Shown: positions 164-26,963 of the stretch, in pieces
How the letters are laid out: every line of letters starts with the position of its first letter
How positions within the stretch are numbered: position 1 is the first letter of the stretch
Virus record (IMG/VR): IMGVR_UViG_3300027734_000038
DNA length: 64,000 nucleotides
Reading direction: 5' to 3' (one strand)
From: a virus
Notes under the pieces: model-generated
The model's input: the letters and a program-made list of their open reading frames with translations, nothing else
The model's database searches: none
What the model was told of the DNA's origin: nothing
Made by a program: the position numbers and the translations under genes

Positions 164-759
164 GTGATACAATTATATTTGATACAGAAGCAGCGGTACA
201 AAACAAACCTTTAATGCAACAGGTAAAAACATTTACCTTGGTGCCAGAGAATCATCCAGCACTACATGAGGTTTTACCAGAATTTGATTTTAGTAATCCG
301 CCTGTAAATACAAATGAATTTGCTTCCACACTGGTAGAAACTTGTAAATTAAATAAAGGTATTGGTTTATCTGCCAACCAATGTGGATTTAAACATAGAG
401 TATTTGTAATGGGTGCTGGTGATGAGTATGTGGCATTCTTTAATCCGAAAGTTATTTCCTTATCGGATGAAATGGCATTGATGGATGAAGGATGCCTTTC
501 TTATCCTTTACTCTCATTGAAGATTAGTAGACCAAAAGAAATTATGGTTGAATACCAAGACTTCAATGGAGAGATTAGAAATACCAAACTAGTTGGTATA
601 TCTGCTCGTTGTTTTCTCCATGAGCTTGACCATATGAATGGAATAGTGTATACTAGTCGTGTTAAACCTTTGGCATTTCAGGTAGCCATGAAGAAAAGAG
701 ATAAACTCTTTAAAATGGTTAAGAAGATGCAGAAAAATTTGAGTAAGATTAAAAAATAA
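160..759 (+). CDS. def: Peptide deformylase
   Basis: Three PDF motifs: GIGLSANQ, EGCLS, HELDH. Confidence 0.95.
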   Translation: MSDTIIFDTEAAVQNKPLMQQVKTFTLVPENHPALHEVLPEFDFSNPPVNTNEFASTLVETCKLNKGIGLSANQCGFKHRVFVMGAGDEYVAFFNPKVISLSDEMALMDEGCLSYPLLSLKISRPKEIMVEYQDFNGEIRNTKLVGISARCFLHELDHMNGIVYTSRVKPLAFQVAMKKRDKLFKMVKKMQKNLSKIKK

Positions 760-2024
760 TGGCAACACCTATAGAATTCGTTGAGAAACAATGGCAAGCT
801 TGGCAAGAAAAAAATTCTGCCGATAAGTTTGAACATATTGATGAAGATAATATGAAAGAAGTCCTGATTAAGGATTTAACATATGCTTCTCAAATGGATG
901 TTCGTGAATATACTTTATATCAAAAATGGTGCGAAGTAAAAGAAAGATATCCCGTTCATGAAGTATCCACATTGTTTGGTACTGAAGTTCAAATGGTGGA
1001 TCCTGAGCAAAAGAAACTAGTTGATAAAGTCAAAGCAAACTTTTGGGTACCACAATCACCTGATGATTATGAAAATTTAAAACCTAAAATGGTTCTCTCA
1101 AATGGTCCTGATGCCGAAACTTGGAATGCCGTTAGGACATTTTCTTCAACAATGAAGAACAATAGTAACATTGGTCGCAATCTATTTTACATTCTTACCG
1201 ATGAAGTTACCAAAAAATATCTTGGTGTTATCTGTATCTCCTCAGACTTTCTGGACTTGACTCCGAGAGATAATGCAATCGGATGGTCAAGAGATGTTAA
1301 GACACAGCAACACATGATTAATCACACCGCAATTGGATCCACCATCGTTCCGTTGCAACCATTAGGTTTTAATTACATGGGAGGCAAACTGCTTGCCTTA
1401 ATGTGTTTATCTGATACAGTTCAAAAAGATTGGAAGCGTCAATATGGAGACACTCTTGTTGGCGTTACTACAACGTCACTCTATGGAAAAACAAAAGCCG
1501 GAGGCCTCTCGCAGTATGATGGCCTTGAACATTGGAATCCTATGGGTTTTTCTTCTGGTTCTGTGGCTTTCGAACCATCTAGGTCAACCAAGAAATTAGT
1601 CTTTGATTGGATTAAAGAAAATCATACTCGTAAATATTTTGAATGGTGGGAAGCCAAGAATACACAAGGACTTCCACTTAAGCGTGACCATAAGAATCGG
1701 TCTTTAAATTTTGCATATTCTAAATTGCAAATACCAAAAGAATTGATTCGTACCGAACATCAGCGTGGTATCTATTTTAGTCCACTCTATAATAATACCT
1801 TTGAATTTCTCCGCAAGGAGATTACCGATTCTGAACTGGTAAAGTCTTTTGATACCAGTGAAGAAACCCTTGCTAATATTTGGAAACAAAAATATGCTAA
1901 GGGTCGTATTAGGCAATTACAGAAAAAGAATACCGTTTCATACGATTCTTTATTCTATGATGACCTAATATACTTGTCTTGGGAAGATACCAAGGCAAAA
2001 TATTTGCCACAAGTTGGCAGATAA
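759..2024 (+). CDS. DUF4338 / Druantia DruA-like protein (paralog 1)
   Basis: GRNL..., RD..IGW, GFNYMGGKLLA, TTSLYG and SQYDG motifs; shares motifs with 18334..19440. Confidence 0.65.
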   Translation: MATPIEFVEKQWQAWQEKNSADKFEHIDEDNMKEVLIKDLTYASQMDVREYTLYQKWCEVKERYPVHEVSTLFGTEVQMVDPEQKKLVDKVKANFWVPQSPDDYENLKPKMVLSNGPDAETWNAVRTFSSTMKNNSNIGRNLFYILTDEVTKKYLGVICISSDFLDLTPRDNAIGWSRDVKTQQHMINHTAIGSTIVPLQPLGFNYMGGKLLALMCLSDTVQKDWKRQYGDTLVGVTTTSLYGKTKAGGLSQYDGLEHWNPMGFSSGSVAFEPSRSTKKLVFDWIKENHTRKYFEWWEAKNTQGLPLKRDHKNRSLNFAYSKLQIPKELIRTEHQRGIYFSPLYNNTFEFLRKEITDSELVKSFDTSEETLANIWKQKYAKGRIRQLQKKNTVSYDSLFYDDLIYLSWEDTKAKYLPQVGR

Positions 2025-8330: not shown

Positions 8331-8818
8331 TGAAACAAAAATTTATTGATGCTTATATGGATGTGGCAGAAAGATTTGCTAAGTTATCTTCTGCCAAACG
8401 ATTGCAGGTGGGCGCCATTGTGGTAAAAGAAGATAGAATCATATCTATTGGATACAATGGTATGCCTGCAGGCTGGACAAATGAATGTGAAGAAAAAGAG
8501 TATTTTATTGGTAATATACCAGAAAAATATAGTACCGACCCATGGATATTCAAAGACGAAGATGGTGGTGTTGGACGCATTAAAACCAAAACGGAAGTGA
8601 TTCATGCAGAAGCCAATGCAATCGTTAAGTTGGCCAAAAGTAATGATTCTGGAGATGGTTCTACCATGTTCCTAACCCATGCACCTTGTGTAGACTGTGC
8701 CAAACAGATGTATGCCATGGGTGTCAAATCGGTATATTACCGCCATTCCTATCGAGATAATGACGGCTTGACATTCTTGGAGAAGTGTGATATAATGGTA
8801 TCTAAGGTGGAGAAGTAA
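8330..8818 (+). CDS. cd: dCMP deaminase
   Basis: VGA.IV, GYNG, HAEANA, PCVDC. Confidence 0.93.
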   Translation: MKQKFIDAYMDVAERFAKLSSAKRLQVGAIVVKEDRIISIGYNGMPAGWTNECEEKEYFIGNIPEKYSTDPWIFKDEDGGVGRIKTKTEVIHAEANAIVKLAKSNDSGDGSTMFLTHAPCVDCAKQMYAMGVKSVYYRHSYRDNDGLTFLEKCDIMVSKVEK

Positions 8819-9416: not shown

Positions 9417-9442
9417 AACCCTAGTTTTTACTAGGGTTTTTT
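9417..9442 (+). terminator. Rho-independent terminator
   Basis: AACCCTAGT-tttt-ACTAGGGTT followed by a T run. Confidence 0.75.
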
Positions 9443-9508: not shown

Positions 9509-9583
9509 GCACCTATCGTCTATCGGTTAGGACACCGCCCTTTCACGGCGGGAAGAGGAGTTCGATTCTCCTTAGGTGTACCA
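9509..9583 (+). tRNA. tRNA-Glu(TTC)
   Basis: Cloverleaf; anticodon arm CCGCC-CT-TTC-AC-GGCGG; GTTCGA T-loop; encoded CCA. Confidence 0.93.
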
Positions 9584-9584
9584 C

Positions 9585-9668
9585 GGAGCAGAAGAATCAA
9601 TGGTGATTCAGCGGACTGTAAATCCGCCGCCTCTGGCACGCTTGGTTCGATCCCAAGATGCTCCACCA
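9585..9668 (+). tRNA. tRNA-Tyr(GTA)
   Basis: GCGGA-CT-GTA-AA-TCCGC; long variable arm; GGTTCGA; CCA; 1 nt after tRNA-Glu. Confidence 0.93.
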
Positions 9669-9890: not shown

Positions 9891-9968
9891 GTGAGAGTGG
9901 CAGAGTGGTCCAATGCAACGGCCTGCAAAGCCGTAAATCCGTGAGTTCGAATCTCACCTTTCACTTCA
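9891..9968 (+). tRNA. tRNA-Cys(GCA)
   Basis: ACGGC-CT-GCA-AA-GCCGT; U73; 3' end reads TCA rather than CCA. Confidence 0.9.
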
Positions 9969-9988: not shown

Positions 9989-10017
9989 TTGACAAAGTAA
10001 CATAAGTAGTGTATTAT
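9989..10017 (+). promoter_or_regulatory. sigma70-type promoter
   Basis: TTGACA-N17-TATTAT just upstream of the tRNA-like element at 10027. Confidence 0.65.
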
Positions 10018-10026
10018 GGTTTAAAT

Positions 10027-10093
10027 GCGGTGTGTGATAGCACGACAGAAGATACCCTCTTTTGTTATCTGAGCAAAGCAGACCACCGCTCCA
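10027..10093 (+). ncRNA. Non-canonical tRNA-Gly(ACC)-like RNA
   Basis: GCGGTG/CACCGC acceptor stem, U73-CCA, mini D-arm, 8-bp anticodon stem with loop ATACCCT, atypical T-arm. Confidence 0.65.
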
Positions 10094-10098
10094 AATTT

Positions 10099-10172
10099 GC
10101 GGGATTAGTTTAATGGTAAAATTAGAGTTTTCCAAACTCCAGTCATTGGTTCGATTCCAATATCCCGCTCCA
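10099..10172 (+). tRNA. tRNA-Gly(TCC)
   Basis: GCGGGAT/ATCCCGC acceptor; GAGT-TT-TCC-AA-ACTC; GGTTCGA; TCCA end. Confidence 0.9.
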
Positions 10173-10174
10173 TC

Positions 10175-10394
10175 ATTGAGAATGTGAAAGAAAGAATAAG
10201 CAATCCCAACTGTTAGGGAAATCACTATCTCAGAAACCGTGTCCGCTATAAGGAGATTATCTAACAACGCAAAAGTTAGATTGAAAACGCAAAGCTGAGA
10301 GAACGACTGACGAGTGGTAACGCATAAAGATAGGCGCCTATACTTTATGATAATTCCACCCATTAGTTCTTAAACACGAAACAGTATTCTCAAT
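10175..10394 (+). ncRNA. Candidate ~220-nt structured ncRNA
   Basis: Closing stem ATTGAGAAT/ATTCTCAAT with several internal helices; no credible + strand ORF. Confidence 0.45.
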
Positions 10395-10693: not shown

Positions 10694-10767
10694 AGCGGGT
10701 TGGTGAAAAGGAATCACAGAGGACTCATAATCCTCAGTTCTTGGTTCGAGTCCAGGATCCGCAACCA
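10694..10767 (+). tRNA. tRNA-Met(CAT), initiator-like 1:72 mismatch
   Basis: GAGGA-CT-CAT-AA-TCCTC; A1:A72 unpaired; A73-CCA. Confidence 0.88.
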
Positions 10768-16992: not shown

Positions 16993-18337
16993 TGATGACT
17001 TTCTACGGAAAGTTTTACCATTTTTAAAGACGGAATATTTTGGTGATAATGTAGAGAAAGTATTATTTAATGAAATCACATCGTTCACGGAAACTTACAA
17101 TAATTCGCCATCGATTGAGGCAGTTGGACTTGCCGTCAAAGAAAGGCGTAACCTTACGGATGACGAAGTTAAGAGATGTGAAGATTATCTTAAAGAAATT
17201 GAGGCAAATCGTCAAACAGAAACCGAGATTCAATGGCTTGTTGACAAGACGGAAAAGTTTTGCCAAGAGAAGGCCATATATAATGCTGTATTGGGGTCTA
17301 TTTCGATTCTCGATGGTAAAGACAAAACAAATGACAAAGGTGCGATTCCCAAGATATTATCGGACGCCTTGGCAATCTCATTCGACAACTCCGTAGGACA
17401 CGATTATCTTGAAAACTCAGATGACCGATACGAATTTTATCACCGCAAAGAAGAACGAATCCCCTTTGATTTGGAATATTTTAACAAAATTACAAAGGGA
17501 GGACTACCTGCCAAAACCCTTAATATTGCTCTTGCTGGTACTGGCGTTGGTAAATCTTTGTTTATGTGCCATGTTGCTGCCAGTGCTATGGTGCAAGGCA
17601 AGAATGTCCTCTATATCACCCTTGAAATGGCTGAAGAAAAGATTGCAGAGAGAATAGATGCAAACTTATTGAATGTTACACTTGATGACTTGATGAGTTT
17701 ACCTAAAGATTTATATGATAAGAAAGTAAATCGTGTAAAAGAAAAAGTAACTGGTAAACTTATTATCAAAGAATATCCAACCGCTTCTGCTTCAACAACA
17801 CATTTTAGAACTTTATTAAATGAACTCAACCTCAAAAGGTCTTTCGTGCCTGATATTATCTTTGTGGATTATCTTAATATCTGTTGTTCTTCTCGTATCA
17901 AAGCTGGTGCGAATATTAACTCTTACACCTATGTCAAGTCCATTGCAGAAGAACTTAGGGGACTTGCGGTTGAATATAATGTTCCTATTGTATCTGCTAC
18001 TCAAACTACCAGAAGCGGATTCACATCGAGTGATCCAGGCTTGGAGGATACGAGTGAGAGCTTCGGGCTGCCTGCGACCGCCGATTTAATGTTTGCCTTA
18101 ATCTCATCTGAAGATTTAGAAGCAATGGGTCAGATTATGGTAAAACAGTTGAAGAATCGTTATAACGATCCAACATTCCATAAACGATTTACACTTGGTG
18201 TCGATAGAGCAAAGATGAAACTGTATGATGTAGAACAATCTGCACAACAAGGAATTGCTGATGCTGGCCATCAAGGTATTGGTGCTCACAACAAAATTAA
18301 GCATGAGAAAAAACAATTTGATGGATTCAAAGTATGA
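16952..18337 (+). CDS. 41: Replicative DNA helicase (DnaB-like)
   Basis: AGTGVGKS, TLEMAEE, VDYLNIC, SATQTTR, SESFGLPATAD. Confidence 0.96.
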   Translation: MKLEQTILKTLIYNDDFLRKVLPFLKTEYFGDNVEKVLFNEITSFTETYNNSPSIEAVGLAVKERRNLTDDEVKRCEDYLKEIEANRQTETEIQWLVDKTEKFCQEKAIYNAVLGSISILDGKDKTNDKGAIPKILSDALAISFDNSVGHDYLENSDDRYEFYHRKEERIPFDLEYFNKITKGGLPAKTLNIALAGTGVGKSLFMCHVAASAMVQGKNVLYITLEMAEEKIAERIDANLLNVTLDDLMSLPKDLYDKKVNRVKEKVTGKLIIKEYPTASASTTHFRTLLNELNLKRSFVPDIIFVDYLNICCSSRIKAGANINSYTYVKSIAEELRGLAVEYNVPIVSATQTTRSGFTSSDPGLEDTSESFGLPATADLMFALISSEDLEAMGQIMVKQLKNRYNDPTFHKRFTLGVDRAKMKLYDVEQSAQQGIADAGHQGIGAHNKIKHEKKQFDGFKV

Positions 18338-19440
18338 TGTTATCTAAAGACGATGCGGTACATTGTGCCAAGGTATTTCAAGATTACTTTGGTAACTTTG
18401 ACCGCATCGATGAATATATGCGTGACCAAAAGTTGGCATCATTATCTGAAATGTCTTTGAATCCTCTATTTGCACCAGAAGATGATTTGTTTTCTGATTT
18501 CACGATGCATCCAAAAGATATGGATATTGAAGTGGTAGAAATTCATAATGATACATGGGAAACCTTACTTTCAATTACCAGTTCTCATGTTAATATCCGA
18601 CCTGTTGGTCGTAGCATTCACTTGGCAGTTAAAGAGAAGAAGTCAGGAAAGTTCGTAGGTTTCATTCGGTTAGGTTCACCAGTCATCAACTGCAAACCTA
18701 GAAATGAAATGCTTGGACAAGTGTTTACGCAACAACCTGAATGGGGTAAACGCTTCAATGATTCTGCTATGATGGGTTTTGTAATTGTGCCCTCTCAACC
18801 ATTTGGTTTTAATTATCTAGGTGGTAAACTTCTGGCTGCCATCTGTACCAGTCATGAAGTCCGTGAAATGATAAACAAGAAATATAATATGAATATGTGT
18901 TTGTTTGAAACTACCAGTTTGTATGGTTCTTCTAAATCATCTTCACAATATGATGGTATGAAACCATATATTCGTTATAAAGGCTTGACAGAATCAGATT
19001 TTTTGCCTATGATGCATGGTAAACCTTATTCAGATTTGGTTGCATTTGTTGAATCGAAGATTGGTAAGATTGTAGATGATGGAATCTCTAGTCGTAAACT
19101 AAAAATCTCCATGAAAATTATTTCATTAACTAGAGCTGCATTGAAAGGCACACCAGAACTGGTTGCTTTTGATACAACGATTGGGAATGCTAAGAAGTTG
19201 ACAGAACAGAAACGATATTATATTTCCGATTATGGTTTTAAGAATATGGTAGACTATGTAACCTGTAAAACAGATACTCTTTTACCTGGTGAAAACTATG
19301 AAAAATTTCATTTGAAGAATGTGATAGAATGGTGGAAGAATAAAGCCACCAATCGTTATGATACATTGAAGTCAGAAAGTCGTTTAAGAACAACACTTGA
19401 GGTTTGGACCAATGATACAAATATTGACATTATTCGTTAA
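18334..19440 (+). CDS. DUF4338 / Druantia DruA-like protein (paralog 2)
   Basis: PVGR, VPSQPFGFNYLGGKLLA, ETTSLYG, SQYDG. Confidence 0.65.
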   Translation: MMLSKDDAVHCAKVFQDYFGNFDRIDEYMRDQKLASLSEMSLNPLFAPEDDLFSDFTMHPKDMDIEVVEIHNDTWETLLSITSSHVNIRPVGRSIHLAVKEKKSGKFVGFIRLGSPVINCKPRNEMLGQVFTQQPEWGKRFNDSAMMGFVIVPSQPFGFNYLGGKLLAAICTSHEVREMINKKYNMNMCLFETTSLYGSSKSSSQYDGMKPYIRYKGLTESDFLPMMHGKPYSDLVAFVESKIGKIVDDGISSRKLKISMKIISLTRAALKGTPELVAFDTTIGNAKKLTEQKRYYISDYGFKNMVDYVTCKTDTLLPGENYEKFHLKNVIEWWKNKATNRYDTLKSESRLRTTLEVWTNDTNIDIIR

Positions 19441-20875: not shown

Positions 20876-21598
20876 ATGACTGCTACTGTGATTATACCGA
20901 CCACCGGTTCGGCTGAGGTTCACACCGCTATTAAATCTGTATTGAATCAAACATATGATACCAAATGTTATGTTGTTTGTGATGGTCCTGAATATGTTCA
21001 TGCTGTTAAAAATCATGTAAAGATTTTTGAGAGCCATCCGAAATACAAAAATATTATGGTTTGTAATTTGCCTTTGAATGTGGGTGCCAGAGGTTTCTAT
21101 GGCCACCGAGTTTATGCAGCTTTTACACACTTGATTGATACAAAATATGTAATGTGGTTAGACCAAGATAATTGGTTATATGAAAACCATGTTAAAAGTT
21201 GTATTGACACTATCGAAGCAACTAATCTAGACTGGTGTTATTCCCTACGACAAATACATAATAAGACCGGTGATTTTGTTTGCTTTGATGATTGTGAATC
21301 GTTAGGCAAATGGCAAACCTATCATGGCATACATCACATAGATACAAATAGTTATTGCGTTAAGACAGAAATTGCAATAAAATTAGCAACCGCTTGGCAT
21401 GGTGGTTGGGGTCAAGATAGAGTATTTTTGGCAACAATTGCTCAACACTTCCCTAAATGGGATTGCACAGGCAACTATACAGTCCATTATCGTGTTGATG
21501 GTGGTCAAGGTTCTGTTACGGCAGATTTTTTTGAAAATGGCAATAAAGTAATGTTTGAAAAATATAATGGAGTTTACCCATGGCGTCAAAAAGTTTAA
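20876..21598 (+). CDS. Glycosyltransferase family 2-like
   Basis: VIIPT, SVLNQT, VCDG, WLDQDN. Confidence 0.8.
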   Translation: MTATVIIPTTGSAEVHTAIKSVLNQTYDTKCYVVCDGPEYVHAVKNHVKIFESHPKYKNIMVCNLPLNVGARGFYGHRVYAAFTHLIDTKYVMWLDQDNWLYENHVKSCIDTIEATNLDWCYSLRQIHNKTGDFVCFDDCESLGKWQTYHGIHHIDTNSYCVKTEIAIKLATAWHGGWGQDRVFLATIAQHFPKWDCTGNYTVHYRVDGGQGSVTADFFENGNKVMFEKYNGVYPWRQKV

Positions 21599-22428
21599 TA
21601 ATCGGTGCATTTACTAATTACAACTACAATCAATTAAAACCATGGGTTGAATCGATTGATGAATGTGGTTTTACTGGCGATAAAGCCATGGTTGTTGGTA
21701 ATGCTTCAGAAGAAACAATCGGTGAGTTAATCAAACGAGATTTCATCATCATTAAGATGCATGATATTAAAGCACCAATTCATGTGGCTCGCTTTCTTTC
21801 AATCTACGACTTTCTTAAAAACACTTGGCAGAATTATAGTCATGTGGTAACCACAGATGTCAAAGATGTTTACTTCCAAACAAATCCAATTGTATGGTTA
21901 GAATTAAATCTTAAAGGTAAAAAACTTGTTGCCGGTTCTGAAGGTATGAGATATGCAGACGAACCATGGGGTAATGAGAATCTTATGCAATCTTATGGAC
22001 CATATGTTCATGAGCAGTTCAAAAATAATGAGATATACAATGTAGGAACAATCGGTGGTGTATCTGAGTATGTAAAAGATATGATGTTCAATATTCTATT
22101 CAATGCAATCAACCGACCCATTCCTATTTGTGACCAAGCGGTCTATAATGTTCTCATTCAGACACAACCATTCAAAGGTGTAACTTACTTTGCTAAACAA
22201 TTAGATGGTTGGGCTTGTCAGGCTGGCACAACAGTTGACCCATCCAAGATTGAATCATTTAGACCACATCTATTAGAACCAGAACCAAAGTTTGAAGATG
22301 GCATTGTTAAGACATCATTAGGCAGAACATTTGCAATTGTTCACCAATATGACCGAGTACCTGCATGGAAAGAACATATCAAACAAAAATATCAACAAGA
22401 AGAAATATTAACTTTTAGGACCGAATAA
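21580..22428 (+). CDS. Putative GT-A glycosyltransferase
   Basis: TDVKDVYFQTNP, NVGTIGG, DQAVYN, VHQYDR. Confidence 0.65.
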   Translation: MASKSLIIGAFTNYNYNQLKPWVESIDECGFTGDKAMVVGNASEETIGELIKRDFIIIKMHDIKAPIHVARFLSIYDFLKNTWQNYSHVVTTDVKDVYFQTNPIVWLELNLKGKKLVAGSEGMRYADEPWGNENLMQSYGPYVHEQFKNNEIYNVGTIGGVSEYVKDMMFNILFNAINRPIPICDQAVYNVLIQTQPFKGVTYFAKQLDGWACQAGTTVDPSKIESFRPHLLEPEPKFEDGIVKTSLGRTFAIVHQYDRVPAWKEHIKQKYQQEEILTFRTE

Positions 22429-22955
22429 TGGACTTTGAAAAAGAATATCAAGATGCCTGTGTAAGAGATACAGACATACACGAACATTTACCAACAATAT
22501 CCGTTTTAACTTCAGAGTGTAATCATGTAACCGAACTTGGTGTTGGTTGGGCTCAAAGCACCCGTGCATTTCTACGACATGATATAGAATTGCATAGTTA
22601 TGAATTTATGCCTCAACCGGGTATTCGTGAATTCTTTGAAGAAGCCAAAAATGCTGGTCGTAATGTAACGCTTCATGTTGATGACACTCGTAAAGTAGAA
22701 ATTGCAGAAACCGATTTGATGTTGGTGGACAGTCTACATATCTATGAGCAGGTACAAAAAGAATTAGAATTACACGCAGGTAAAGTTCGTAAATATCTTT
22801 TATTTCACGACACCACATTATTTGCTGACCGTGGTGAATTTGGTGGCAAGGGTATTTGGCCAGCGGTTCAAGAATTCATTGATTCTCATCCTGAATGGCA
22901 ATTAGTTGAAAGACGGCACAATAATAATGGATTAACTATTTTAAAGAGAGTATAA
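22428..22955 (+). CDS. Class I SAM methyltransferase-like protein
   Basis: ELGV, LLVDSLH.Y, FHDT, NNNGLT. Confidence 0.75.
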   Translation: MDFEKEYQDACVRDTDIHEHLPTISVLTSECNHVTELGVGWAQSTRAFLRHDIELHSYEFMPQPGIREFFEEAKNAGRNVTLHVDDTRKVEIAETDLMLVDSLHIYEQVQKELELHAGKVRKYLLFHDTTLFADRGEFGGKGIWPAVQEFIDSHPEWQLVERRHNNNGLTILKRV

Positions 22956-23956
22956 TGAAAATCTTTATCACGGGAATTGCAGGTTTCCTAGGTAGTCACC
23001 TTGCAGATAGAATGTTGGAATTGGGACACGAAGTTATTGGTAACGATACACTTATTGGTGGTTATCGTGATAATGTTCCAAAGAAAGCAAAGTTGTATGT
23101 TGTGGATTGTTGCGATATAGAAAAAATGACTTACATCATGGAAGGTTGTGATATTGTTATACACTCAGCCGCTACTGCACACGAAGGACTTTCTGTATTC
23201 AGTCCTAGTTTTATTACCAAAAATATATTTGAAGCTTCTGTTGCAACAATCTCAGCTGCGGTACAAAACAAAGTAAAACGATTTGTATATTGCACATCGA
23301 TGGCAAGATATGGTAATCAACCTCATCCTTTCACCGAAGATATGGCACCGAAACCAGTAGACCCTTATGGTGTTGCAAAAGTTGCTGGTGAAGATGTATT
23401 AAAGATTCTTGCTGAAACGCATGGCATGGAATGGAACATTGCGGTGCCACATAACATCGTTGGTCCTCGTCAAAAGTTTGATGACCCTTTCCGTAATGTT
23501 ATGAGTATCATGGCTAATCGTAATCTCCGTGGTTTACCTGCAATCATCTATGGTGACGGCAATCAAACTCGTTGTTTCTCATATGTTGCTGACTGTATCA
23601 ACTGTTTAGAGAAGATGGCATTGGATCCCAAAGTTGTTGGTGAGATTATCAACATTGGTCCTGATGACGGCACAATCTCAATCAAAGACTTGGCAGTATT
23701 GGTAGCCAAAGAAACCGGATTTGAAGGTAAAGCAATTCATATGCCAGACCGACCAAGAGAAGTTAAACACGCTGATTGTTCTGCTGACAAGGCAAGATGG
23801 TTATTGCAATATGAAACTAAAACCACATTAGAGAAATCTATCCAAGAAACTGTGGCATATATTAAGAAAAAAGGACCTAGACAATTTGATTATTCTTATC
23901 CTTTAGAAATCATTTCTGATAAAACTCCTAAAACTTGGAAAGATAGGTTAATGTAA
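22955..23956 (+). CDS. NAD-dependent nucleotide-sugar epimerase/dehydratase
   Basis: TGIAGFLGS Rossmann motif; YGVAK (YxxxK); GDGNQTR.F. Confidence 0.92.
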   Translation: MKIFITGIAGFLGSHLADRMLELGHEVIGNDTLIGGYRDNVPKKAKLYVVDCCDIEKMTYIMEGCDIVIHSAATAHEGLSVFSPSFITKNIFEASVATISAAVQNKVKRFVYCTSMARYGNQPHPFTEDMAPKPVDPYGVAKVAGEDVLKILAETHGMEWNIAVPHNIVGPRQKFDDPFRNVMSIMANRNLRGLPAIIYGDGNQTRCFSYVADCINCLEKMALDPKVVGEIINIGPDDGTISIKDLAVLVAKETGFEGKAIHMPDRPREVKHADCSADKARWLLQYETKTTLEKSIQETVAYIKKKGPRQFDYSYPLEIISDKTPKTWKDRLM

Positions 23957-24735
23957 TGGCATCTATATCATTTCTTCATTTGGCTTCGGCTGGTAAATCA
24001 ATATCAACAGAAAAAGTTGTTAGTAACATTAGACAATATCATCCAGATGCTTATTATTTTTTGGGATCTGATGCTGCTGATGATTTATCGGATATTGCCA
24101 AACAATACAATTTAGATTATCATTATTTCGATGATAAGTTGGGATATCCAACACAACCTTTTGGTTACAGAAAAGAAAAGGTATTATTGTGGTTGGAACG
24201 ATTTCATTATGCCTGTGAAAATTGTAACACATCACATATAATGATGGTAGAAGATGATGTTTGGATTAAAAAACCTATTACAGTAAAAGATGAATGGGAG
24301 ATGTCTTGCCATAAGATTAGTCATGGTAATCGTTTTCCTCCTGCTGTATTAGATATCATGGAACAATTTTCTGGTGTAAAACCTAAAACCGATTTCTATG
24401 GTGGCGGCGGTGGTTCAATTTACAATGTCAAAACATTTTTAAAGAACTACACAAGAATGACCGCATTGATTGATGATAAGTGGGATTACATACAAGACAA
24501 TCATTATCCTACGATTGGTTGGATGGACTGTTTAATGGTCGCATACTATTTCTTTTGTGGTAAAAATTATACAGAGAATCCTCATATGACAGATACACAC
24601 CATCACCAAAAAGGATTTGATTTTGATAAATTTGTAGAAGAACAGCCAGAACACATTGAAATAGTTAATAACTATAAAAAGTATTACTGGCCTAATGAAA
24701 ATGAAGTTATAACATTTAATACAGAATCAATATGA
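23956..24735 (+). CDS. Putative glycosyltransferase
   Basis: MMVEDDV DxD-like motif; cluster context. Confidence 0.55.
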   Translation: MASISFLHLASAGKSISTEKVVSNIRQYHPDAYYFLGSDAADDLSDIAKQYNLDYHYFDDKLGYPTQPFGYRKEKVLLWLERFHYACENCNTSHIMMVEDDVWIKKPITVKDEWEMSCHKISHGNRFPPAVLDIMEQFSGVKPKTDFYGGGGGSIYNVKTFLKNYTRMTALIDDKWDYIQDNHYPTIGWMDCLMVAYYFFCGKNYTENPHMTDTHHHQKGFDFDKFVEEQPEHIEIVNNYKKYYWPNENEVITFNTESI

Positions 24736-25529
24736 ACGACATAACAATAGTCACCGCTTTCTTTGATATTGGTCGTGGTGATTGGACACCAGACAAAGGA
24801 TTACCACACTATTTACATAGAACGACCAAAACATATCTTGACCGATTTAGTCATATGGCTAAATTGGAAAATCCTATGGTTGTTTATACATCAAAAGATT
24901 TGGTTGATGAGGTAAAATTTCTCAGACAGGATAGACCTACTGACATACTCACAATTGATTTTCCTAATAGTTTTCAAAAACTAAGAGATGAGATTACCAG
25001 AGTTCAAAAAGACTCAGAATATCAAGCTAAAATAAATCCCGCACAAGCAAAAAATCCAGAGTATTGGAATGCTGACTATGTTCTCGTCAATTTTTTAAAG
25101 TCATCTTTTGTTACAAGAGCTTTACAATCTAATCTTATTAATACTGATTTGGTTGCTTGGATGGATTTCGGATACTGTAGAGACCTATCTACACTTAATG
25201 ATGTTAAACATTGGCAATATCCTTTTGCCAAAGATAAAATACACTTTTTCAATTTAAAAGATTGGCAAGAAGGCACATTCATTGAGAATGTTATTTTCAA
25301 TAATGATGTTCACATTACAGGTCCATGTATTGTTGCGGGTAAAGATATGTGGCAAACACTAGAGCATTTAGTTCACCATAGTGTAGACCAATTACTTAAA
25401 AATAATTTAATAGATGATGACCAAACCATCTTATTGATGTCGTATTTACAAAAACCAGAATTGTTTGAATTGCATAAAGTATCAGCTGATGATTGGTTTG
25501 TTGCTTTTAAGGATTATAATGAAAATTAA
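24732..25529 (+). CDS. HtrL/YibB (WlaTC)-family glycosyltransferase-like protein
   Basis: ITIVTAFFDIGRGDW, PEY...Y, WMDFG, DDDQ. Confidence 0.8.
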   Translation: MNDITIVTAFFDIGRGDWTPDKGLPHYLHRTTKTYLDRFSHMAKLENPMVVYTSKDLVDEVKFLRQDRPTDILTIDFPNSFQKLRDEITRVQKDSEYQAKINPAQAKNPEYWNADYVLVNFLKSSFVTRALQSNLINTDLVAWMDFGYCRDLSTLNDVKHWQYPFAKDKIHFFNLKDWQEGTFIENVIFNNDVHITGPCIVAGKDMWQTLEHLVHHSVDQLLKNNLIDDDQTILLMSYLQKPELFELHKVSADDWFVAFKDYNEN

Positions 25530-26250
25530 AATTGATTGTACCGCCAATCTAGGTGATTTTTGTAATGCACTACCTGTAATCTCAGGTATCTCAAAATATA
25601 AAAATGAAAAGATTCATCTCATTATCAGACCAGAGATGCGTAAGTTTAATGGTATTAAAGAGTTTTTAAAATATCAACCAATGATTGAAGATGTCGATTT
25701 CTCCGATGATTTATTGACTTTTGGTGACATTATGACTATCAGTTCATGGACACGCATGGACCAAGAAGATTCAAATCGTCCTATTGAGACCTGTCGTTAT
25801 GAGAATTGGGTAAATGATAATTACAGAATGTTATTTGAAGTTGATGATGATTTTGAGATTCAAGTTTTCCCAATGTTTGTTGATGATTTCAATGATAAAA
25901 CTATTATTGGTGATAGATGGTCTGCAAAACAAGATCCTAGTGTTGATGCAAGACGATACACCAATGTAATTGAGAATGGTGCAAATCTTGATAAAGACAA
26001 AGTTGTATATATGGACTACTCAAAGCCATTAATGTATAATTGCAATCTTATCAAACAGAATCCTAATCCATTTATTACTACATTCACAGGCATTGGTATT
26101 ATTGCTGACCTAATGAATAAAGAAACAATCGTTGGTTGGGACGAAGATATGAGGACTTGGGATGGCCATCCTGTTGAGTTTGATTTTAAACGACACTATT
26201 ATGGTAATCGTAAATCAAAATTAGTTTATGTGAAAGATATTACACTATGA
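25519..26250 (+). CDS. Putative GT-B (GT9-like) glycosyltransferase
   Basis: LGD....LP N-terminus; FITTFTG; cluster context. Confidence 0.45.
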   Translation: MKIKIDCTANLGDFCNALPVISGISKYKNEKIHLIIRPEMRKFNGIKEFLKYQPMIEDVDFSDDLLTFGDIMTISSWTRMDQEDSNRPIETCRYENWVNDNYRMLFEVDDDFEIQVFPMFVDDFNDKTIIGDRWSAKQDPSVDARRYTNVIENGANLDKDKVVYMDYSKPLMYNCNLIKQNPNPFITTFTGIGIIADLMNKETIVGWDEDMRTWDGHPVEFDFKRHYYGNRKSKLVYVKDITL

Positions 26251-26963
26251 TTATCAATATTGAACCTGGAACTTTTGGCACAGTTCGAAATGGAGATATG
26301 ATTGCTGTTGCGAATGTCTTGGAACATATCAGAAAAACAAATAACAATCCTACAATACAGTTTCATTTGAAACCAGGAAATGTTAGCTCAGACACACATT
26401 GTCAAACATTTTATGAGATAATGTTGAAGATGACTAATTATTTTTCAACAGAACCGGGTGAACAATCATTGCCTTGGAGAAAAGTAAATGTTTGGGATTT
26501 CAGAGATATATGTGGTGATTTGATAAAAATACCAAATAATGCACCGATGGAAAAGAAGATTGCTGTATTTCCATTATTTGATGCACCATATAATCAATGG
26601 CGTAACTGGCCAAAGAATGTATATGAACAGATTATTGCCAAGTATTCTACTGAAGAATATAAAGATTATGAAAAAGTAATCTGTAAAAAAGGCGAATCAA
26701 CCGAAGGTTGCCCATTTGAGGGTTGGCGGTATTCTACCAATTTTGTGCAGAATTATTACCACATTACCACAGCGGAAATCTTTGTTGGTGGTGATACTGG
26801 TTCTAGCCACTTTGCATGGGCGCTTGACAAAGGACCTAAAGACCTGATATACTATGGATCCAGTCGAGCATTAGTTCATACCCTACCATTCTATTTACTT
26901 CAAGGAAAAGGTCGTATGGCCAATTATTGGTTGGATTTTGAAGGTACAAAATGGAATAATTAA
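26247..26963 (+). CDS. Putative GT9-like glycosyltransferase
   Basis: RNGD, RNWP, FVGGDTGSSHFA (GT9 D-T/S-G..H motif). Confidence 0.6.
   Translation: MIINIEPGTFGTVRNGDMIAVANVLEHIRKTNNNPTIQFHLKPGNVSSDTHCQTFYEIMLKMTNYFSTEPGEQSLPWRKVNVWDFRDICGDLIKIPNNAPMEKKIAVFPLFDAPYNQWRNWPKNVYEQIIAKYSTEEYKDYEKVICKKGESTEGCPFEGWRYSTNFVQNYYHITTAEIFVGGDTGSSHFAWALDKGPKDLIYYGSSRALVHTLPFYLLQGKGRMANYWLDFEGTKWNN

Follow-up and report, generated by a model that had tools for sequence, protein, structure and literature searches.

Why would a phage that encodes a normal glycine tRNA carry, directly in front of it, a miniature RNA that keeps the glycine identity elements within a remodelled tRNA architecture, and what could a glycine attached to such an RNA be used for? 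The question is raised by a stretch of 64,000 nucleotides (hereinafter the window; IMG/VR virus record IMGVR_UViG_3300027734_000038) that comes from a T4-like phage encoding a family B polymerase, UvsX, a clamp, Hsp20, GroES and dCMP deaminase, and has a G+C content of 36%. The RNA runs that contain part of the window come from lake water.

The miniature RNA and its neighbourhood

The RNA occupies positions 10027-10093 of the plus strand (67 nt), and its sequence and fold are as given in a preliminary description of the locus: the minimum free energy is -21.2 kcal/mol (z -3.43), and none of 200 shuffled sequences folds as well. The acceptor stem consists of 6 bp and an unpaired U7/C66; the D arm has a 3-bp stem and a 4-nt loop without GG; the 8-bp anticodon stem carries the loop A32 U33 A34 C35 C36 C37 U38, in which positions 32 and 38 can pair; and a 1-nt connector leads to the T arm, with a 4-bp stem and the loop AGCAAAG. 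The 61-72 arm is short, at 11 nt, and the 3' end, U73-CCA, is encoded. Where a canonical tRNA has G18G19, T54-psi55-C56, a purine at position 37 and 7+5 bp, this RNA has no G18G19, AGC at 54-56, C37 and 6+4 bp with a mismatch. As had been anticipated, ARAGORN overlooks the window copy, and it also missed all 42 homologues (66-69 nt) on which it was run; nor did Rfam match the window copy at E values up to 10 in the test against the tRNA family RF00005.

The two neighbours that had been described for the RNA are both in place. A sigma70-type promoter match, TTGACA-17-TATTAT (9989-10017, plus strand), lies directly upstream and ends 9 nt before the RNA, and a normal tRNA-Gly(TCC) starts 5 nt downstream (10099-10172, plus strand). 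The promoter is a consensus match only, as are those located directly upstream of 61 of the 128 miniature RNAs and of 18 of the 97 normal phage tRNA-Gly genes. Because the normal tRNA-Gly(TCC) is adjacent, the miniature RNA is an additional gene, not a replacement, and the two are probably co-transcribed. A lake RNA contig of depth 2 spans positions 10044-10174; as its form shows neither strand, ends nor level, we do not use it as evidence. The T stem of the normal tRNA-Gly(TCC) is itself A-U-rich (A49-U65, U50-A64, U51-A63), a type described as weak for EF-Tu, so the T-stem pairs alone do not tell the two RNAs apart.

Several other elements are found in this part of the window. Further normal tRNA genes, for Glu, Tyr, Cys and Met(CAT), are located at 9509-9668, 9891-9965 and 10694-10767. 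There are also two perfect sigma70 matches, at 8768 and 9469, and between them a hairpin that resembles a terminator (9417-9438). Directly 3' of tRNA-Gly(TCC) lies a second conserved structured RNA (10176-10394, plus strand; z -3.0), of which 22 distinct homologues were identified in the fetched loci; its ends are paired, its middle is variable (about 170-225 nt), and a conserved hairpin has a loop with the potential to base-pair with AACAGT on the 3' side. An Rfam search with this second RNA returned no match, and RNA contigs from two lake studies touch it.

Selection on the RNA family

The miniature RNA is a real element under selection. About 120 distinct members, 63-70 nt in length, were collected from aquatic T4-like phages; in GTDB genomes, none of the 48 pattern matches was a true miniature RNA, and blastn searches of cultured phages with two of the variants yielded only chance matches or normal tRNA-Gly. 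The first homologue search, with a pattern of the two acceptor strands, retrieved 42 phage homologues of 66-69 nt, among which conservation of the acceptor is circular, being the search pattern itself, and it was therefore re-tested with an internal pattern that left the acceptor unspecified. With this pattern, 69 of the 73 distinct matches end in CCGC-U73-CCA, and compensatory changes are seen at 5-68 and 6-67. Since the covariance model R1 misses some of the 63-65-nt and 74-nt variants, presence and absence were scored by pattern searches. Two 62-nt candidates from a loose scan (L503:3070-3131 and L499:11673-11734), with a GCGG start and a CCA end, proved to be the 3' part of a tRNA-Leu(TAA) gene.

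The comparison with relatives that the preliminary description had proposed was made on 17 distinct 67-nt homologues, in which 98.9% of the cells pair and 9 of the 21 pairs change on both sides; none of 500 shuffles scored as high, and slid controls pair at 32-56%. All four stems covary, and a single compensatory T-stem pair is all that separates the window copy from the nearest virus record. Pairwise identity in the family goes down to 36%, with the stems intact and covarying and the glycine end invariant, which bears out the earlier suggestion of a selection that retained the glycine identity elements but reshaped the elbow.

Positions were counted in 118 parsed miniature RNAs, with 100 normal phage tRNA-Gly as the control. 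G1-C72, C2-G71, G3-C70, U73 and CCA are fixed in the parsed set, which was found by the acceptor. C35 and C36 are present in 117 of the 118 miniature RNAs found by the acceptor, the single exception being a parsing artefact; in the set of 69 matches, these two positions belonged to the internal search pattern. The bacterial glycine identity set comprises U73, G1-C72, C2-G71, C35 and C36 (PMC9976931), and the RNA in the window has the complete set of GlyRS identity elements, with the core remodelled at the G10-Y25:G45 triple.

Outside this set, the picture is different at the positions that matter for the anticodon loop and the elbow. Position 34 is free (A in 63, U in 43, C in 9 and G in 3 of the 118), with A the commonest, and position 33 is U in 83, G in 20 and C in 15, that is, not U in 35 of the 118. 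Position 37 is C in 90 of the 118, against A in 98 of the 100 normal tRNA-Gly, and positions 32 and 38 can pair in 114. G55 is present in 116 members, the G51-C63 pair in only 2 of 118 compared with 41 of 100 normal phage tRNA-Gly, and the 61-72 arm is one base short (11 nt) in 57. The 54-58 pair alternates between U-A, A-A and A-U, suggesting a T-loop that has retained its fold. Read from the sequences, this conservation profile is that of an RNA selected for charging, not for decoding. The weight that had been placed on the ACC anticodon is not sustained: because position 34 is free, ACC is not the essential feature of the RNA; position 34 is not specifically recognized by GlyRS; and activity in elongation has been reported for a tRNA-Gly(ACC) mutant of E. 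coli (PMC4928997), so we do not take A34 as an argument against translation. Conversely, C37, G55 and the short 61-72 arm had been passed over, and it is ACC that is not fixed in the family.

Two DruA/DUF4338 paralogues and their linkage to the RNA

The window encodes two paralogous GNATs of the DruA/DUF4338 family. Paralogue A (18334-19440, plus strand; 368 aa) is located directly after the gp41-type helicase gene and passes the gathering score of PF14236, its only Pfam match (37 bits against a cut-off of 27, E 2.8e-09); its Atlas cluster is DruA, 98% viral. Paralogue B (759-2024, plus strand; 421 aa) follows the peptide deformylase gene and was assigned to DruA/DUF4338 by homology, with 35% identity to A over 145 aa, and by the DUF4338 label given in phage Mosig. 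Neither paralogue has a match in NCBIfam. In one contig (L274, G035:14962-15830), a stop or frameshift interrupts paralogue A, perhaps through an assembly error or a recent loss, and paralogue B and the RNA are kept. On the 3' side of paralogue A, the window contains a cluster of glycosyltransferase, methyltransferase, NAD-dependent epimerase and HtrL/YibB genes (20876-26963).

The structure model of paralogue A (pLDDT 92.7) predicts a GNAT fold, and nearly all of its top structural matches have this fold. Mu Mom (8bv8_B) ranks first of 48,161 chains (Z 10.1, rmsd 3.7, 165 residues aligned), in a tied match, with unrelated acetyl-CoA GNATs no more than 1 Z away; a Foldseek search with the model gave no match below E 0.001. 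HHalign of the paralogue family against a 57-sequence Mom alignment returned a probability of 0.2, that is, no profile-level similarity, and PDB sequence searches produced no link between the paralogues and Mom. In a comparison by eye, the invariant residues of the paralogue family did not map clearly onto the catalytic H58, Y59, R111, S124, D149, R151 and Y159 of Mom. One GenBank record gives a homologue with 52% identity the name 'methylcarbamoylase mom', a label that is the depositor's only. By sequence, the paralogues are not members of PF25680, and we infer at most that they might work like Mom. In one paper, DUF4338 GNATs are read as possible protein-targeting effectors (PMC10853773).

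Physical linkage connects the RNA with these genes. Among the 76 distinct miniature RNAs that have a paralogue in the locus, 31 follow paralogue B at a distance of 23-140 nt, and the 67-nt subtype found in the window is among them, compared with none of 54 normal tRNA-Gly genes within 500 nt of either paralogue; in the window itself, the RNA is about 8 kb from either one. A paralogue is present in 24 of the 26 RNA-bearing contigs, both misses being 8 kb long, and 18 of the 19 contigs that were chosen by other markers and hold both paralogues carry the RNA. In the UvsX-plus-helicase tree, five separate lineages are without paralogue A and the RNA was seen in none of them; with 5 independent pairs, this test cannot reach p 0.05, three of the A-less contigs span the whole interval, and most of the negative contigs are fragments. 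Paralogues occur without the RNA in G081, G050, G054 and G062, in three metagenome loci (L627, L636 and L640) and in ten cyanophages. Almost the whole clade has paralogue B, and the adjacency of this gene to the miniature RNA may go back to one ancestral event. In several loci (L365/L388 of G018, L059, L065, L110 and L027), two different miniature tRNA-Gly variants stand in tandem directly 3' of paralogue B.

Two other sets of elements resemble this arrangement. A search in which ACC was part of the pattern identified a group of 30 full-length tRNA-Gly(ACC) genes, mostly in T4-like contigs; many have a GG-less D loop and G55, some have normal loops, and 6 of 13 are found on one side or the other of paralogue A at a distance of no more than 500 nt. 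Two cultured SAR11 phages, HTVC008M (L516:9141-9214) and Mosig (L517:4780-4853, minus strand), both carry such a gene with a GG-less D loop and a G55 T loop; one of the two records has no annotation for it, the other presents it as an ORF, and the annotated tRNA count of HTVC008M is zero. HTVC008M has both paralogues, Mosig has B alone, and cyanophage S-SSM7 is an example with A alone. In nine loci of unrelated, non-T4 phages (L009, L028, L034, L042, L056, L073, L086, L096 and L098), a 76-nt Gly-tRNA-like element either immediately precedes or lies within the 3' end of a true Mom-profile ORF that keeps the HY and ExxR motifs; in L056 and L096, the element doubles as the coding sequence for the C-terminal tail of the Mom-family protein.

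Candidate roles and known systems

Taking the sequences, the structure model and the known precedents together, we favour, with a probability of roughly 0.65, the view that the miniature RNA is a dedicated non-proteinogenic glycine donor for one or both of the DruA/DUF4338 GNATs. Of the three roles suggested in the preliminary description, the non-ribosomal donor is thus preferred to the decoy and the decoder, and the linkage now puts a name to the partner, namely, the two GNAT genes, not the glycan genes that had been among the examples given at first. Its own sigma70 promoter would drive transcription of the RNA, which would be trimmed to a 67-mer with a CCA end and charged by host GlyRS via the G1-C72, C2-G71, U73 and C35/C36 present in its sequence, with the long anticodon stem presumably offsetting the short D stem and so preserving the distance between the anticodon and CCA. 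The lost G18G19 and psi55, C37 and the avoided G51-C63 would, by analogy with the staphylococcal NP tRNAs, keep the RNA off EF-Tu and the ribosome, so that the glycine stays available. One or both GNATs would then take the glycyl group as does Mu Mom, which uses Gly-tRNAGly to modify adenine (dA) in DNA (PMC13219725). The likeliest acceptor would be a base in new phage DNA, conceivably protecting it from host nucleases; this part of the proposal, which draws on the Mom precedent and on the place of the enzyme among replication genes, is tentative and, to our minds, falls somewhat short of an even chance. Held with the same reserve, the broader picture would be that of a widespread two-part phage system, in which a translation-proof miniature tRNA-Gly serves DruA/DUF4338 GNATs that aminoacylate DNA bases, and in which the pairing of a Mom-type enzyme with its own glycine carrier would have arisen in several phage lineages. 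Given that Mu manages with host tRNA and that some phages have no such RNA, the RNA would be an accessory that secures the supply when EF-Tu holds the normal Gly-tRNA.

Other explanations have to be weighed against the same evidence. A decaying tRNA pseudogene, named at first as the alternative, would account for the failure of ARAGORN and Rfam to find the RNA and for the U7/C66 mismatch, but about 120 distinct sequences with covarying stems and an invariant glycine end refute it in practice. It also appears unlikely that the RNA is a decoy or counter-defence RNA that soaks up tRNA-Gly-targeting toxins or anticodon nucleases, or alters host GlyRS activity, whether charged or not, with the GNATs uninvolved. 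The strong promoter match of its own, the frequent position beside a normal tRNA-Gly and the A34 and C37 unlike those of host loops are compatible with such a role, as is the behaviour of the glycine-specific tRNA toxins FaRel2 and TacT, which are reported to inspect the acceptor end. However, a decoy leaves unexplained both the 31 miniature RNAs directly behind paralogue B, where none of the 54 normal tRNA-Gly is found, and the parallel case of the true Mom genes, which have Gly-tRNA-like elements beside them.

We consider it quite improbable that the RNA is a specialized decoder, a small working tRNA for GGU (or all GGN) codons. Its architecture does resemble that of tRNA-Pyl and of mitochondrial tRNA-Ser, with their short connector, small D loop and long anticodon stem; GGT is the main glycine codon in the window (350 of 590 in 30 ORFs); A34 is the commonest variant, in addition to which a full-length Gly(ACC) family exists, some of it with normal loops; and the E. 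coli tRNA-Gly(ACC) can elongate. Against this stand the predominant C37, the 35 members without U33, the free position 34 and the 11-nt arm of 57 members, as well as the normal tRNA-Gly genes that are usually alongside, and the linkage to paralogue B would have no explanation; a decoding role may hold for some of the full-length Gly(ACC) members. Of similarly low probability is a glycine donor for another enzyme, without a link to the paralogues, for example in the glycan-modifying cluster at about 20.9-27 kb. Glycosyltransferase and epimerase genes are indeed present in the window, and tRNA-dependent GNATs modify lipids, peptides and the cell wall, but the scan of about 35 proteins, with about half of the window ORFs annotated, revealed no Fem or MprF-like gene, and the physical linkage favours the DruA-family genes.

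To our knowledge, reports of dedicated non-proteinogenic tRNAs are confined to staphylococci, and Mom, which uses host tRNA, is the sole reported case of tRNA-dependent DNA modification. Precedents thus exist for both halves of the proposed system, namely, the staphylococcal glycine donors and the tRNA-dependent DNA modification by Mom, and our search of the literature outside subscription journals found no description of a phage miniature glycine donor or of Gly-tRNA mimics beside Mom or DruA genes. Should the donor reading be correct, phages that abound in lakes and oceans, among them HTVC008M and Mosig, two cultured phages of SAR11, would bring their own glycine carrier, an aminoacyl-tRNA pool would be split off from translation during infection, the DruA family would have its first reaction, and an undescribed DNA modification would be predicted in culturable phages. 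The RNA offers a handle for testing the chemistry of DruA/DUF4338, represents a class of tRNA genes overlooked by annotation because tRNA finders miss it, and, at 63-67 nt, provides a natural scaffold for studies of the requirements of a synthetase and of rejection by EF-Tu.

One close parallel is with the staphylococcal NP tRNA-Gly (NP1-3), in which TGC or TGT replaces TTC, which bind EF-Tu weakly, and which feed the Fem GNATs FmhB, FemA and FemB and are preferred by these transferases (PMC7826273). They share with the miniature RNA the retained glycine identity, a TGC-type T-loop in place of TTC, a paired 32-38 that leaves a 5-nt loop, weak T-stem pairs, a position as an extra gene beside a normal tRNA-Gly and a partner enzyme of the GNAT fold, which for the miniature RNA is a proposed one; G55 in 116 of 118 members and G51-C63 in 2 of 118 against 41 of 100 are of the NP type. 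In contrast, the NP tRNA-Gly are full-size, chromosomal and devoted to cell-wall bridges, whereas the miniature RNA is phage-borne, 63-70 nt long and found outside the staphylococcal lineage; its D stem has 3 bp and its anticodon stem 8 bp, it lacks a variable loop, and its position 34 is free.

On the enzyme side, Mu Mom (PF25680, PDB 8BV8), the known donor for which is Gly-tRNA (PMC13219725), resembles paralogue A in being a phage gene product with a GNAT fold and is the top structural match of its model. Mu uses the host tRNA-Gly and has no Gly-tRNA-like element next to mom, and the paralogues differ from Mom in belonging to PF14236, in being longer and paired, and in lacking detectable profile similarity. 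Paralogue A has its family in common with DruA of Druantia (PF14236) but has replication genes of the T4-like type as its surroundings here, in place of a Druantia defence operon.

In its architecture, the RNA is reminiscent of tRNA-Pyl and mammalian mitochondrial tRNA-Ser(UGA), which likewise combine a one-base connector, a small GG-less D loop, a lengthened anticodon stem and a shrunken variable region. These, however, are working decoders with a purine at position 37, whereas the miniature family departs further and mostly has C37.
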